64,000 nucleotides of DNA, taken from Phycisphaerae bacterium. GTDB taxonomy: Bacteria > Planctomycetota > Phycisphaerae > SM23-33. Location of the stretch: contig JBAZTO010000016.1 in NCBI GenBank assembly GCA_041661865.1, positions 2,201 through 66,200 on the forward strand, given 5' to 3'. A program made the translations under genes and the position numbers. The notes under the pieces are model-generated. The model made no database searches, had not been told where the DNA came from, and worked only from the letters and a program-made list of their open reading frames with translations. This document shows positions 2,170-7,834 of the stretch, in pieces. Position 1 is the first letter of the stretch. Each line of letters opens with the position of its first letter.

Positions 2170-3882
2170 TCATGCCGTTGTGGCACTCAGCACTTCTTCG
2201 ACCGTCGTGATGCCCGCCTTGACTTTGGCCAACCCGTCCTGTCGCAGCGTCACCATGCCCGAGGCCAGCGCCATCGCCCGCAACTCGTTGATGCTGGGGG
2301 CCGCGGTGATCTTGTCGCGCATCGCATCGTCGGGCACCAGCAGTTCGTAAATGCCGATCCGCCCGCTGAAGCCGGTGTTGCGGCACTTGTTGCAGCCGAC
2401 GCCGTGGTAGAACGTGTCCACCTCGCCGGCCACCCGCTCGACCACGTTCCGCATGTTCTCGGGCAACTCGTAAGGCTCCTTGCAGTTGGTGCAGATCTTC
2501 CGCACCAGCCGCTGGGCCAGCACGCCCACCACCGAGGCCGCCACCAGGTAAGGCTCCACGCCGATGTTCAGCAGTCGCGTGATGGCGCCGGGGGCGTCGT
2601 TGGTGTGCAGCGTGGAAAGCACCAGGTGCCCCGTCAACGCCGCCTGCACGGCGATGCGCGACGTGTCGCTGTCGCGAATCTCGCCGACCATGATGACGTC
2701 GGGATCCTGCCGCAGCAGCGACCGCAAGGCCGAGGCGAACGAGAAGCCGATGTGGTCGTTCACCTGGAACTGGTTGACCTTGGGCACGTTGAATTCCACC
2801 GGGTCCTCGACGGTGCAGATGTTCACATCGTCGCCGTTGAGCTCGCGCAGGACGCTGTAGAGCGTGGTACTCTTGCCGCTGCCGGTGGGACCGGTGACCA
2901 GCACGATGCCGTTGGGCGCGGCGATGACCTTGCGCCAACTCTTGAGCATTTCGTAGGAAAAGCCCAGCTTCTCGAGGTTCACCAGGACGTTGCGGTTGTC
3001 GATGATGCGGATGACGATCTTCTCGCCGTGGCGGCTGGCGATGGTACTGACGCGAAGGTCGATGGGCCGGCCTTCCATCAGCACGTGGATACCGCCGTCC
3101 TGCGGCAGGCGCCGCTCGGAGATGTCCAGTTGCGCCATGATCTTGATGCGGCTGGAGATGGCCGGCAGCATCTTGTAGGGCGGACGCATCTTCTCGAACA
3201 GCGATCCGTCCACGCGGTAACGCACGCGCAGCGAGTTCTCGTCGGGCTCGATGTGGATGTCCGACGCCCCCTCATGCACGGCGTGGTAAATCATGTAGTT
3301 GACCAGCTTGATCACCGGCGAGCCCGCGGCGGCGGCCTCCAGGTCGGCGATGTCGTCGCCCTTGTCCTCGATGAGCGAGAGGTCGCTGGGCGCCGCGTCG
3401 TCGAAAATCTCATCGATGACGAAGATGTTGGCCGAGGGCAGATGGTTTTCCAGCGTGGCGTGGATGTCCTTGGCCGTCGCGCAGACCACCAGAACCTCGC
3501 AGCCGGTGATCCGCCCCACTTCCTCCATCAGGAAGACGTTGGCCGGCTCGTTGACCGCCAGCGTCAGGCGGTTGCGGACCTTGAACAGCGGCATCACGCG
3601 GTGCTTGTCCATGAACTCGCGCGGGAGGATCTCGATGACCTTGGGGTCGGCGATCCGCGGCGAAATCCGCGCGAACGGCACGCCGTAGCCGCCGGCCAGG
3701 GCCTCCATGATCTGCTCTTCGCCGCACAGGGCCAGTTGCTGAAGCACCTCGCCCAGCAGCAGCGTATTGCCCGATTTCCGCTGGAATTCCAGCGCCTGGT
3801 TAAGCTGCTCTTCGGTGACCGCGCCGGAACTCACCAGCAACTGGCCTAGTTGAAGCCCTCGTTTTTTGTCAGTGGCAATCAT
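2170..3882 (-). CDS. pilB: Type IV pilus assembly ATPase PilB/MshE with N-terminal MshEN-like domain
   Basis: GPTGSGKSTT, TVEDPVE, LRQDPDVIMVGEIRD, GHLVLSTLHTND, tetra-Cys Zn motif (CTNC...CNKC), ASDIHIEP; N-terminal LGQLLVSSGAVTEEQLNQALEFQ...LLGEVL. Confidence 0.95.
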   Translation of the reverse strand: MIATDKKRGLQLGQLLVSSGAVTEEQLNQALEFQRKSGNTLLLGEVLQQLALCGEEQIMEALAGGYGVPFARISPRIADPKVIEILPREFMDKHRVMPLFKVRNRLTLAVNEPANVFLMEEVGRITGCEVLVVCATAKDIHATLENHLPSANIFVIDEIFDDAAPSDLSLIEDKGDDIADLEAAAAGSPVIKLVNYMIYHAVHEGASDIHIEPDENSLRVRYRVDGSLFEKMRPPYKMLPAISSRIKIMAQLDISERRLPQDGGIHVLMEGRPIDLRVSTIASRHGEKIVIRIIDNRNVLVNLEKLGFSYEMLKSWRKVIAAPNGIVLVTGPTGSGKSTTLYSVLRELNGDDVNICTVEDPVEFNVPKVNQFQVNDHIGFSFASALRSLLRQDPDVIMVGEIRDSDTSRIAVQAALTGHLVLSTLHTNDAPGAITRLLNIGVEPYLVAASVVGVLAQRLVRKICTNCKEPYELPENMRNVVERVAGEVDTFYHGVGCNKCRNTGFSGRIGIYELLVPDDAMRDKITAAPSINELRAMALASGMVTLRQDGLAKVKAGITTVEEVLSATTA

Positions 3883-3908
3883 ATCGTTTCGACCCGCTCA
3901 CTTGTCTG

Positions 3909-4250
3909 CTACGACCGCACGGACTTGACGGCCTCCGCGGCGGTATCCAGAACCTCGAAGTATGTCAGCAAATGCGTGATCTCCAGGATTTTTCTGATGT
4001 TCTCATCGCAGTTGGTCAGCTTGACCTGCCCCATTCTCTGGGCCAACTGGTCCTGGAGGTCCATCAGGCACTCCAGGGACGCACTGTCGATAAACGGCAC
4101 CTGCTCCATATTCAGGATCAGGTCCACGATCCCATTGCCGGCCAACTGGTGATCCACCGCCTGCTTGAAGGCGACCAGACAATCTTCGGTCAGTTCACCC
4201 TTGATGTTGAGAATGACCGCGTGCCCATAACTTTCGGCGGCTACTTGCAT
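3909..4250 (-). CDS. STAS domain protein (anti-sigma-factor antagonist-like)
   Basis: 113 aa; IKGEL, DLILNMEQVPFIDSASL (STAS phosphoserine motif), VKLTNCDENIRKILEIT. Confidence 0.88.
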   Translation of the reverse strand: MQVAAESYGHAVILNIKGELTEDCLVAFKQAVDHQLAGNGIVDLILNMEQVPFIDSASLECLMDLQDQLAQRMGQVKLTNCDENIRKILEITHLLTYFEVLDTAAEAVKSVRS

Positions 4251-5904: not shown

Positions 5905-6309
5905 CTAGTTCGTTTGGATGGACTCACTCTCGATCGTCTCGTGCTCGCCCAGCAACTCGTGGACCTTCTGGAGTACTTCGCGCGGCGCGAACGGTTTGGC
6001 CAGGATCACCGAGATGCCCGCCTGCTGAAGCTCCGCCGGCTCGATATCGAACTCCCGCGCCGTCAGCATCATGGCCGGGATGTGGCGCGTGTCCTCGTGG
6101 CGGCGAAGTTCCCCGCAGAACTTCAGGCCGCTCATGAAAGGCATCTGGCAGTCCGTGATCACCAGGTCGGGCCTTTCCATCAGGCACAAGTCCAACGCCT
6201 CCTCGCCGTCCACCGCCGTCACCACGTCGTAACCGGCGTTCTTGAGCTTAAGTGACAGCACGTGCAGGATATGCGCCTCGTCGTCGGCAATCAGTATCTT
6301 CTTACTCAT
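5905..6309 (-). CDS. Single-domain response regulator (receiver only)
   Basis: ILIADDE, DLVITDCQMP (phospho-Asp), MLTA, KPF; no output domain. Confidence 0.93.
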   Translation of the reverse strand: MSKKILIADDEAHILHVLSLKLKNAGYDVVTAVDGEEALDLCLMERPDLVITDCQMPFMSGLKFCGELRRHEDTRHIPAMMLTAREFDIEPAELQQAGISVILAKPFAPREVLQKVHELLGEHETIESESIQTN

Positions 6310-6391
6310 ATGTCACCCGTTCAGACCCGCCGAGGTGTCCGTCAGTAGCCTCCGAGGCTCCGTCTCCAGACACATCGACACTTTTTGACCC

Positions 6392-7834
6392 TCATGCCAG
6401 TAACGGCAGTTCAAAACTGAAAGTGCTTCCCTTGCCCACTTCGCTGGTGACGGCCAGCTTGCCCTCGTGCGCCGTCTCGATGATGTGTTTGACCAGCGTC
6501 AGGCCCAGCCCGGTGCCCTTGGCCAGCTTGTTGTTGGCCTTGACCCGGTAGAACTTGTCGAAGATGCGGGGCAGATCCTGGGCGGGGATGCCCGCGCCGG
6601 TATCGGTGACCTCGCACACGGCCATGCCCCGCCGCTCGTCGGCCGAGACGCTTACGGTGATCGTGCCGCCGTCGGGGGTGTACTTGATGGCGTTGGAGAT
6701 CAGGTTCAGCGCCGCCTGGTAGATCATGTCGCGGTCGGCCTCCACCAGGTAGTACACCGGCGCGAGGCGCTCGACGACCTTGAGGGTCTTGGCCCGGGCC
6801 TGCGGGGCGGCCACGTCCAGGACCTTCCTGACCACCTCGGTCAGCACGATCGGCTCGCGGACCATCTTCACCACGCCCGACTCGATGCGGGAGATATTCA
6901 GAATGTTCTCGATGAGCCGGTGGAGACGGTCGGTCTCGCTGGAGATGATCTCGTAGAACTCGCGCTGGGTCTTGTCGTCCTTGGCCTCGCCGTCCACCAG
7001 CATCTCCACATAGGCCTTGATGGAGGCCAGCGGCGTCTTGAGTTCGTGCGAGACGTTGGAGACGAAGTCGGACTTCATCTTGGCGATTTCTTTCTCGCGC
7101 GTCACGTCATGCAGCACGGCCACCACGCCCGAGACCTCCTCGTTGGTGTTGACCACGCAGCTCAGGGTGATGTTGAAGGTTCGCGGGGTGCCCTTCTGGT
7201 CAATACTGTGTTCGACGACGTTTCGCGTGTGGCTTCGGCCGTGGCTGCGCGTCTCGCGAACCAGCCGCACCAGCGTGCCGTCGGAGATGATCTGGTCGAT
7301 GTTCTTCCGCTGGTTGCCCTCGCACTTGAAGACCAGCAACTTCTCAGCCGCCTCGTTGGCCAGGATCAGTTCGTCAAAACGGTTGGTCACGATCACGCCG
7401 TCGGAAATGGAGAAGATGATCGCCTCGGTGTGGTTCTTCTCGGCGGCGGAAATGCGGGCCTGGATCTGGAGTTCGCGATTCTCGGCCTGGATTTCGTCCA
7501 TCCGGCTGCGCGTGAGCGAAAGAAGCTGGTTGAGCGGCCGGACGACCTGTCCCAACTCGCAGGCGTCCTCGGCCAGCACCAGGCCGTACTGCCCGGTGCG
7601 GCACATCGTCTCGATCTGCCGGGCGACGGAGGTCAGCTCGCGGTAGACCCGCCGCCAGAAGGCCAGCAGGATCAGGATCGTCAGCACGGCCACCAGCGCG
7701 TAGACCAGGCCGTTAAGCCCTTTGCCTCCGGCGAGATGGCCTTGCACAACCATCATGGTGGCGTAGTAAGCGGCGCTGGCGCCCAGCACGACGAGCGTGA
7801 TGCTTGCCAGCCCCAGTCTTTTGGCGATTGTCAC
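6392..7834 (-). CDS. Membrane PAS-domain sensor histidine kinase
   Basis: H-box SHELKTPL, N-box NLISNAIKY, DTGAGI, GTGLGL; PAS region (ISDGVIVTN...LANEAA); two N-terminal hydrophobic helices. Start moved from the track's 8065 to GTG at 7834, which has a GGAGG SD upstream. Confidence 0.92.
   Translation of the reverse strand: MTIAKRLGLASITLVVLGASAAYYATMMVVQGHLAGGKGLNGLVYALVAVLTILILLAFWRRVYRELTSVARQIETMCRTGQYGLVLAEDACELGQVVRPLNQLLSLTRSRMDEIQAENRELQIQARISAAEKNHTEAIIFSISDGVIVTNRFDELILANEAAEKLLVFKCEGNQRKNIDQIISDGTLVRLVRETRSHGRSHTRNVVEHSIDQKGTPRTFNITLSCVVNTNEEVSGVVAVLHDVTREKEIAKMKSDFVSNVSHELKTPLASIKAYVEMLVDGEAKDDKTQREFYEIISSETDRLHRLIENILNISRIESGVVKMVREPIVLTEVVRKVLDVAAPQARAKTLKVVERLAPVYYLVEADRDMIYQAALNLISNAIKYTPDGGTITVSVSADERRGMAVCEVTDTGAGIPAQDLPRIFDKFYRVKANNKLAKGTGLGLTLVKHIIETAHEGKLAVTSEVGKGSTFSFELPLLA

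Follow-up and report, generated by a model that had tools for sequence, protein, structure and literature searches.

A histidine kinase, receiver, HD-GYP and STAS gene cassette within the type IVa pilus operon of Phycisphaerae: a candidate post-translational control module for PilB

To our knowledge, how bacteria decide on the time and place of type IV pilus extension has been worked out in detail in only a few proteobacteria, in myxobacteria, in Thermus and in cyanobacteria, and Planctomycetota are unexplored in this respect. Here we describe four signalling genes, encoding a sensor histidine kinase, a stand-alone receiver (REC), a PocR-like/GAF/HD-GYP protein and a STAS protein, which are embedded in the type IVa pilus gene cluster of an uncultured Phycisphaerae bacterium, directly upstream of the gene for the pilus extension ATPase PilB. 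The DNA analysed, hereafter the window, is a stretch of 64,000 nucleotides (GenBank assembly GCA_041661865.1, contig JBAZTO010000016.1, positions 2,201 to 66,200 of the forward strand). The sequence derives from a groundwater metagenome, and the sequencing runs that hold it are of DNA only (groundwater and freshwater metagenomes), with no RNA runs among them. The candidate control module formed by these genes is conserved across the class Phycisphaerae. An original prediction, made from the sequence of the window, had read them as a local cyclic di-GMP (c-di-GMP) circuit next to the extension motor; this interpretation is partly supported by the present analysis.

The first 19 kb of the window (63% G+C) form a single long minus-strand type IVa pilus cluster. 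Its order on that strand is pilMNOP-pilQ, a TPR lipoprotein gene, the histidine kinase, the stand-alone receiver, the PocR-like/GAF/HD-GYP gene, the STAS gene, pilB, pilT and pilC. In transcription order, pilM is preceded by four pilin-like genes, a LamG/PilX-like gene and a GspH-like gene. PilB, PilT, PilC, PilM/N/O/P, the PilQ secretin and pilins are all encoded in this one cluster, which identifies it as a type IVa pilus system, and the orthologous loci are annotated with PilM_2, PilN, PilO, Secretin and T2SSF. The features are as follows.

1-1067, minus strand: pilC, T2SSF platform protein, from frame translation and tblastn to PF00482-annotated genes of orthologous loci; the 3' end lies beyond the window start
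1084-2142, minus strand: PilT-family retraction ATPase (TIGR01420, 397.5 bits, cut-off 319)
2170-3882, minus strand: PilB-type pilus extension ATPase, 570 aa (Pfam T2SSE and MshEN; TIGR02538, 604 bits)
3688-3852, minus strand: PilB residues 11-65, variant MshEN_N tandem motif, QLGQLLVSSGAVTEEQLNQALEFQ, 7-residue spacer, LLGEVLQQLALCGEEQIMEALAGG (NCBIfam NF053729)
3909-4250, minus strand: single-domain STAS protein of the SpoIIAA/RsbV type, 113 aa (Pfam STAS; TIGR00377)
4241-5896, minus strand: PocR-like/GAF/HD-GYP protein, 551 aa (Pfam; family alignment)
5905-6309, minus strand: stand-alone receiver without output domain (Pfam Response_reg, 86.6 bits)
6392-7834, minus strand: sensor histidine kinase (Pfam PAS, HisKA and HATPase_c)
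7992-9110, minus strand: TPR lipoprotein, pilotin-like (PilW/PilF/Tgl-like), with lipobox LLAGC (Pfam TPR families)
9185-14204, minus strand: pilM, pilN, pilO, pilP-like and pilQ, the upstream half of the operon (Pfam Secretin; ortholog annotations; tblastn synteny)
9185-11269, minus strand: pilQ secretin (Pfam Secretin)
13065-14204, minus strand: pilM, within the upstream half of the operon

The four signalling genes lie, as had been proposed, between the pilotin-like gene and pilB, all on the minus strand. Their individual positions are correct, but the interval 2170-7834 assigned to the cassette takes in pilB itself. From the TPR gene to pilC, the intergenic distances are 157 nt (TPR gene to kinase), 82 nt (kinase to receiver), 8 nt (receiver to HD-GYP), -10, 26 nt (STAS to pilB), 27 and 16 nt. 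The negative value corresponds to the overlap of the HD-GYP stop with the STAS start (4241-4250), which measures exactly the 10 nt previously noticed. Since pilT and pilC come after pilB, the cassette is the middle of one long operon. No intrinsic terminator was detected between the cassette genes, the sole minus-strand match being weak and located at the 3' end of pilB. A scan of the window with Rfam gave two tRNAs only and no c-di-GMP riboswitch, and control by a riboswitch or another RNA was rejected on these two grounds. The possibility of a type II secretion system was also rejected: the scores of PilB are equal for the PilB and GspE models, and PilT, PilM/N/O/P and several pilins favour a type IVa pilus. 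Among the flanking genes, pilT follows pilB in some orthologous loci only. The TPR lipoprotein gene is kept between pilQ and the kinase in orthologous loci; matches of its product to the NCBIfam PilW and Tgl models are weak and under their cut-offs.

Two side observations concern the upstream end of the cluster. The 218-aa open reading frame listed for the GspH-like minor pilin (14227-15136, minus strand) shares about 150 nt with the 135-aa gene upstream of it. As the prepilin-type signal of the product (RGYTLTEV) starts near residue 58, the true start is probably an internal Met near residue 44. Divergent from the pilin genes and just upstream of them, a plus-strand gene (19443-20615) encodes a 390-aa protein without a Pfam match, the C-terminal third of which is a low-complexity tail rich in Pro, Thr and Ala.

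The conservation of the arrangement was followed in a census of 80 loci, with one genome per species, fetched with the HD-GYP family alignment. Genes were placed by tblastn with the window proteins, and STAS genes with a hidden Markov model (HMM). A complete colinear kinase-receiver-HD-GYP-STAS-pilB series is found in 26 loci, usually with pilM...pilQ-TPR before and (pilT)-pilC after. Another 11 loci end at a contig edge, with all visible genes in the same order. Six loci carry pilM/Q-(TPR)-kinase-receiver-HD-GYP and have STAS-pilB elsewhere, and four loci of the Phycisphaeraceae type have the genes close together but reordered (REC-HD-GYP-kinase-STAS-pilB-pilC, or halves on opposite strands). 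Ten loci hold REC-HD-GYP only. The last 23, most of them labelled Pirellulales, hold more distant GAF-HD-GYP paralogs that have no REC or pil genes as neighbours. Independent Pfam-annotated gene calls in three metagenome or genome contigs give the same order as in the window, and the HD-GYP/STAS overlap is 4 nt in the independently annotated contigs (L003 and L004). The linkage to pil clusters on which the original prediction depends was thus recovered in relatives, with 26 complete, 11 contig-cut but consistent and 4 rearranged loci. Because the arrangement recurs in dozens of species-level genomes, with 35-61% identity of the HD-GYP protein across the species with conserved synteny, it stands far beyond chance, and a fortuitous neighbourhood was rejected.

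The kinase gene starts with a GTG at 7834, preceded by GGAGG, which gives a protein of 480 aa, the same as its orthologs. The protein has two transmembrane helices joined by an outer loop of about 10 aa, followed by a HAMP-like linker and the PAS, HisKA and HATPase_c domains. The phosphoacceptor motif (H263 in SHELKTP) is present and the N, G1, F and G2 boxes are intact (NLISNAIKYT, DTGAGI, FDKFYR, GTGLGL); the nearest NCBIfam relatives are PnpS, WalK and PhoR. The receiver has its D9/D10, D53, T83 and K105 residues. All the motifs of a two-component pair are therefore there; the kinase gene lies next to the receiver gene, on its upstream side, both in the window and in 26 of 26 complete loci. 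As for the following gene, REC lies directly upstream of HD-GYP in 52 of the 80 loci, and the two proteins align with the N- and C-terminal parts, respectively, of NF053512, a model of fused REC-HD-GYP proteins of the NosR family. An action of the receiver on the HD-GYP protein is supported by this adjacency and by the fit of both proteins to one fused model; REC-(GAF-like)-HD-GYP fusions are a described architecture (10.1101/2021.11.05.467447). None of the four signalling proteins contains a DNA-binding domain, in agreement with the original prediction, and control would accordingly be post-translational, since a DNA-binding output is absent from all of them.

The domains originally assigned to the HD-GYP protein and to its neighbours are retrieved with Pfam. 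A database gene call places the start of the HD-GYP protein at M14 (5857), which is a possible alternative. It consists of a Cys-rich PocR-like sensor domain of the PAS type (residues ~9-145), a coiled-coil, a GAF domain (~200-335) and the HD-GYP domain (~345-525; Pfam HD_5, 143 bits). The HD-GYP motifs had been thought intact, and indeed the HD motif, the HHExxDGxGYP signature and the complete set of metal-binding His and Asp residues are present (H366, H398-D399, H427, H451-H452-E453, D456-G457-x-G459-Y460-P461 and D480). In an alignment with 25 homologs (48-61% identity), these catalytic residues are invariant or nearly so, metal ligands and GYP loop alike. The AlphaFold2 (AF2) model has a predicted local distance difference test score (pLDDT) of 81, and its best Foldseek match is PmGH (4mcw, E 1e-20), followed by c-di-GMP-bound DvhD and PA4781.

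At the N-terminus, the PocR assignment (PF10114) is marginal for the window protein, with 24.4 bits for a gathering score of 23.9; 16 of the 25 family members match the model, with a best E of 4.6e-7. When modelled in isolation, the domain reaches a pLDDT of 89.5 and resembles PAS and GAF domains, with weak matches (E ~3e-3) and no close solved relative. Because these structural matches are weak, no ligand can be proposed. Within the family, Cys52, Cys62, Cys88 and Cys124 are nearly invariant and G87 is invariant, and R99 of an RRR motif (98-100) is nearly invariant. This pattern of Cys and Arg residues suggests a metal site or an Fe-S/redox site rather than a hydrocarbon-binding pocket. We also observed that the GAF domain carries an NKx4Fx3D motif, like the NKFDE of cyclic-nucleotide-binding GAF domains.

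The STAS protein scores 66.3 bits with TIGR00377, for a cut-off of 53.45, and its relatives in the PDB are TM1081 and SpoIIAA. Residues E6, Y8, G9, H10, H34 and D55-S56 are invariant in an alignment of 19 sequences of close homologs. Ser56, within the FIDS sequence, occupies the position phosphorylated in SpoIIAA-type proteins and is kept in all but one distant ortholog. A word index gave 190 homologs, all of about 113 aa. In genomic context, the STAS gene is directly upstream of pilB in 35 of the 35 cases with enough upstream sequence, with gaps from -7 to 140 nt. The pairing holds for PilBs only 42-44% identical to that of the window, and also when the HD-GYP gene is several kb away. It is found again in the Phycisphaeraceae order REC-HD-GYP-kinase-STAS-pilB, with 7-nt overlaps. 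In split clusters, STAS accompanies pilB-pilC, and the kinase-receiver-HD-GYP trio remains with pilMNOPQ. Hence, the tightest linkage is that of STAS with pilB, not that of STAS with the HD-GYP gene.

PilB itself has a Walker A motif at residues 331-338 and a tetracysteine motif, and its nearest solved structures are Geobacter PilB, Myxococcus PilB and PilF. The MshEN-like repeat reported at its N-terminus is confirmed. This region passes the 53-residue NCBIfam model "c-di-GMP_motif, MshE-related" (NF053729) with 46.5 bits for a cut-off of 38, and the two copies lie at residues 11-34 and 42-65. The MshEN motif is made up of two tandem 24-residue sequences, RLGxx(L/V/I)(L/V/I)xxG(L/V/I)(L/V/I)xxxxLxxxLxxQ, separated by a 5-residue spacer (PMC5013675), and binding of c-di-GMP is known for MshE, PilB and PilF (PMC5013675, PMC11731258). 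We compared the motif position by position in 40 PilB orthologs. The spacer has 7 residues, instead of 5, in the window protein and in 35 of the 40 orthologs. Since Geobacter PilB combines a 7-residue spacer with canonical motifs, the 5-residue spacer may not be strict. Motif I of the window protein fits the consensus everywhere but at position 1, which is a Q; in the orthologs, G3, L6, G10 and Q24 are kept in 39-40 of 40 cases, and a K or R is usually found two residues before position 1. Motif II of the window protein keeps L2, G3, L6, L11, I17 and L21 but departs from the consensus with L1, Q7, A10 and G24, and the orthologs keep L2, G3 and L6. The scaffold positions are 95-100% conserved, and this strong conservation shows that the N-terminal site is under selection and forms a functional surface.

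Taken together, the genes observed, with their intact catalytic motifs, their packing as in an operon and their conserved linkage, lead us to a reading in which we place about as much belief as doubt: the cassette would be a post-translational module dedicated to the type IVa pilus, in which the two-component system drives the HD-GYP phosphodiesterase, with STAS and the variant MshEN domain as output on PilB. The membrane kinase, which has almost no external loop, would sense a membrane or cytoplasmic cue and phosphorylate the adjacent receiver. The phosphorylated receiver would then act on the HD-GYP protein encoded 8 nt downstream, as a split version of the fused REC-HD-GYP proteins RpfG, RpfY and NosR. 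The PocR-like and GAF domains of the HD-GYP protein itself would feed in further cytoplasmic inputs. The enzyme would lower the level of a cyclic dinucleotide, most probably c-di-GMP, and PilB would respond through its variant MshEN domain together with STAS, the latter serving PilB as a cofactor or adaptor, which phosphorylation of Ser56 may gate. We infer here the phosphotransfer, the coupling of the receiver to the phosphodiesterase, the identity of the substrate and the way in which PilB reads the signal, through the ligand, STAS or both. For this last step, control of the PilB N-domain by the adaptors PilZ and FimX is a precedent (PMC8389850).

Several observations weigh against this reading. 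Regarding the substrate, the HD-GYP domain is as near to V-cGAP3, a phosphodiesterase specific for 3'3'-cyclic GMP-AMP (cGAMP), as to PmGH: in sequence matches of the catalytic domain to the PDB, V-cGAP3 comes first with 148 bits, versus 136 bits for PmGH. Moreover, Tyr362 replaces Glu185, the third-metal ligand of PmGH, and the "PYTxGHS" signature is common to the window domain and V-cGAP3. These scores and Tyr362 make the substrate (c-di-GMP, cGAMP or pGpG) ambiguous, as well as the type of metal site. The intact HD-GYP motifs of the original prediction hold, and its further step, the degradation of c-di-GMP, is weakened. The same circuit could use another messenger, with the HD-GYP protein cleaving 3'3'-cGAMP, or mainly pGpG, and the PilB motif reading that ligand. 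The two PilB motifs are asymmetric, one being canonical and the other a variant half-site, and MshEN binds cGAMP weakly (PMC5013675). Most characterised HD-GYP proteins are nevertheless c-di-GMP phosphodiesterases, no Hypr-GGDEF or DncV-like synthase was seen near the cassette, and specificity is not inferable at about 40% identity, so that we regard another messenger as quite improbable.

Regarding PilB, the idea that its N-domain is a c-di-GMP receptor is weakened by substitutions at position 1 of the motifs and at the terminal Gln of motif II. In the orthologs, position 1 is Q in 29 of 40 and R in 6 of 40 for motif I, and L in 37 of 40 and R in 1 of 40 for motif II. Position 24 of motif II is never Q; it is occupied by A, G, C, S or T, and by F in one ortholog. 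The Gln at position 7 and the Ala at position 10 of motif II in the window PilB go in the same direction. In PilF, the GSPII-A domain, which has a degenerate motif II, does not bind c-di-GMP (PMC11731258), whereas GSPII-B, with K and L at the two first positions, binds it at 6 nM (PMC11731258). Hence, c-di-GMP binding by the window PilB is not readable from its sequence. Mutations of the hydrophobic scaffold of MshEN weigh more than those of the polar residues (PMC5013675).

Loss of the polar c-di-GMP contacts with conservation of the scaffold is what would be expected if the variant N-domain of PilB bound STAS and not a nucleotide. In that case, the HD-GYP protein would mainly be a "trigger enzyme", a sensor of cyclic dinucleotide and kinase signal, in a physical HD-GYP-STAS-PilB chain resembling FimX-PilZ-PilB. 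This explanation overlaps the preferred one, the main difference being whether bulk or local hydrolysis matters. The constant STAS-pilB adjacency (35/35) and the HD-GYP/STAS gene overlap, which suggests translational coupling, are in its favour. So is the case of Xanthomonas citri, where the PilB N-domain has the same fold without the motifs and binds the small adaptor PilZ, which binds FimX (PMC8389850). In addition, STAS matches the MlaB model weakly (27 bits), which recalls a STAS protein regulating an ATPase. Conversely, the invariant catalytic residues of HD-GYP argue for catalysis, and STAS and HD-GYP are apart in 10 species. Fusions were looked for with an HMM against 1.84 billion representatives, which gave 322 matches at E<1e-10. 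No STAS-PilB or STAS-HD-GYP fusion was found among the best 150 representatives, and ten long matches scanned with Pfam either contained several STAS domains or joined STAS to a kinase of the RsbW type, a Ser/Thr kinase, a WecG glycosyltransferase or a cupin. We consider a chain of this kind, with hydrolysis secondary, as unlikely though worth retaining. As to the narrower proposal that STAS is a dedicated PilB cofactor docking on the variant MshEN domain, and thereby couples the motor to the operon-encoded HD-GYP protein and two-component system, we advance it tentatively and with more doubt than conviction.

Finally, the trio is not obligatorily beside PilB, since six species hold it with pilMNOPQ while STAS-pilB sits elsewhere, and since a metagenome lineage (L001) has the trio by pilM with no pilB nearby. 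The L001 locus (JGI 3300039307, a 1.07-Mb contig, positions 5926-12698) reads pilin-pilM-(61 aa)-kinase-REC-HD-GYP-dnaJ, with an HD-GYP protein of 59% identity. There, pilNOPQ, STAS, pilB and pilC are not found nearby, and dnaJ is the gene that follows pilC in L004; the locus looks like a deleted or relocated pilus cluster that has retained the signalling trio. Furthermore, no GGDEF or PilZ gene is present in the window or in the pil-linked loci, and a GG[DE]EF scan of all loci gave matches in three unrelated loci only. The local circuit of the original prediction is consequently reduced to a sink, the HD-GYP protein, and a possible receptor, PilB, without a local source. The partner switch that it also envisaged fares similarly: a phosphorylatable Ser56 is there, but in neither the window nor the annotated orthologous loci did we find an RsbW-type kinase, a PP2C phosphatase or a sigma factor. 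The cognate anti-sigma Ser kinase (HATPase_c_2) and PP2C, absent from the locus, may be encoded elsewhere in the genome.

These features are compatible with genes that are co-transcribed with the pilus genes and not directed at PilB. The two-component system and the HD-GYP protein would then act as a lifestyle switch that sets the global c-di-GMP level, as HD-GYP enzymes usually act on diffusible pools, and STAS would take part in a usual partner switch controlling a sigma factor, for instance one that serves pilin or adhesin genes. STAS clearly belongs to the anti-sigma-antagonist family and has the conserved phosphorylatable Ser, the trio is separable from pilB, and there is no local cyclase. 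Nonetheless, besides the missing switch partners, there is the strict adjacency of STAS to pilB, which persists through rearrangements and includes 7-nt overlaps in Phycisphaeraceae; without a functional tie to PilB it would be hard to account for. The trio also always stays in one half of the pilus cluster. We thus judge this global explanation improbable.

The module is built wholly of parts from well-known families, and it is already established that c-di-GMP controls pilus extension ATPases. Three aspects appear undescribed: a phosphodiesterase embedded with its two-component input within a pil operon, the invariant STAS-pilB pairing, and the clade-wide MshEN motif variant. In the literature on STAS or anti-anti-sigma proteins with PilB, and on HD-GYP proteins with pili in Planctomycetes, the arrangement was not found described, and neither STAS nor HD-GYP comes up in a review of PilB cofactors from 2024. 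An apparent literature match of STAS with MasABK was rejected, as the matching text was the author name Stassinopoulos. If the preferred reading is true, it would be the first time that a phosphodiesterase for cyclic dinucleotides is seen hard-wired into a pilus assembly operon together with its two-component input and a STAS protein. Should the more doubtful proposal of STAS as a dedicated PilB cofactor also hold, the system would represent a STAS-based counterpart of PilZ-FimX and would give "anti-sigma antagonist" proteins a new role that does not involve sigma factors. With four small, soluble or easily truncated proteins and the PilB N-domain, the module offers a compact set for the biochemistry of local second-messenger signalling and possibly a new class of PilB cofactors. 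The natural series of MshEN variants (Q or L at position 1, no Gln 24 in motif II) may also help to define what c-di-GMP binding needs.

Other regions of the window deserve mention. A carbohydrate-utilisation neighbourhood (21027-35074) adjoins the pilus cluster. It contains an AraC-type regulator, a GFO/IDH/MocA oxidoreductase, an FG-GAP protein, a GH4 glycosidase and a fucosidase-like protein, as well as a large DUF6785/DUF6784 membrane protein, a beta-helix protein and a rhamnosidase-like protein. The tRNA genes are at 20864-20935 and 31359-31432 (minus strand). On the minus strand at 52957-55253, two adjacent genes encode secreted proteins of 441 and 322 aa with zinc-metallopeptidase motifs of the HExxHQ type (HEATHQ and HELAHQ); in a Pfam scan covering the 441-aa protein only, this protein had no match at E <= 1e-6. 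Further on, the gene at 55775-56875 (minus strand) encodes a predicted lipoprotein of 366 aa, in which a collagen-like G-P-x/G-x-x run of about 200 residues is followed by an OmpA-like C-terminal segment, making it an unusual bacterial collagen-repeat envelope protein.

The module can finally be compared with known systems. MshE of Vibrio cholerae, PilB of Myxococcus xanthus and C. thermophilum, and PilF GSPII-B of Thermus thermophilus belong to the same ATPase family, with ND0/ND1 (MshEN) domains and the tandem 24-residue motif. The window PilB differs from them at motif position 1 and at position 24 of motif II, and has a 7-residue spacer, as Geobacter PilB does. We know of no phosphodiesterase encoded within the pil operon in these systems.

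In FimX-PilZ-PilB of Xanthomonas and Pseudomonas, a c-di-GMP-related protein and a small adaptor act post-translationally on the PilB N-domain (PMC8389850), as proposed for the window. In contrast, the window has no PilZ, GGDEF or EAL; the enzyme is a catalytically intact HD-GYP protein, the small protein is STAS, and the genes are in the pil operon. The window system does not belong to the FimX-PilZ-PilB group, and the likeness is a functional analogy only.

The RpfC/RpfG and RpfY/NosR systems share with the scheme proposed for the window the control of an HD-GYP phosphodiesterase by a histidine kinase through a receiver domain, and RpfG of Xanthomonas also affects pilus motility. Here, however, the receiver has a separate gene, the phosphodiesterase has its own PocR-like and GAF sensors, the kinase is non-hybrid, and there are no DSF synthesis genes. 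The GAF-HD-GYP protein PmGH of Persephonella marina (PDB 4MCW) has the same domain order and is the best structural match over GAF and HD-GYP. The window protein differs from it by the additional Cys-rich PocR-like domain at its N-terminus and by the Tyr in place of E185, as in binuclear enzymes of the V-cGAP3 type.

Lastly, the SpoIIAA/RsbV antagonists have the same single-domain STAS fold and the conserved phosphorylatable Ser. In their case the partners are an RsbW kinase, PP2C and a sigma factor, none of which is near the window STAS gene, whose constant neighbour is a pilus ATPase gene. STAS proteins also serve as cofactors of other machines, such as HsbA with the cyclase HsbD and MlaB with the ATPase MlaF.

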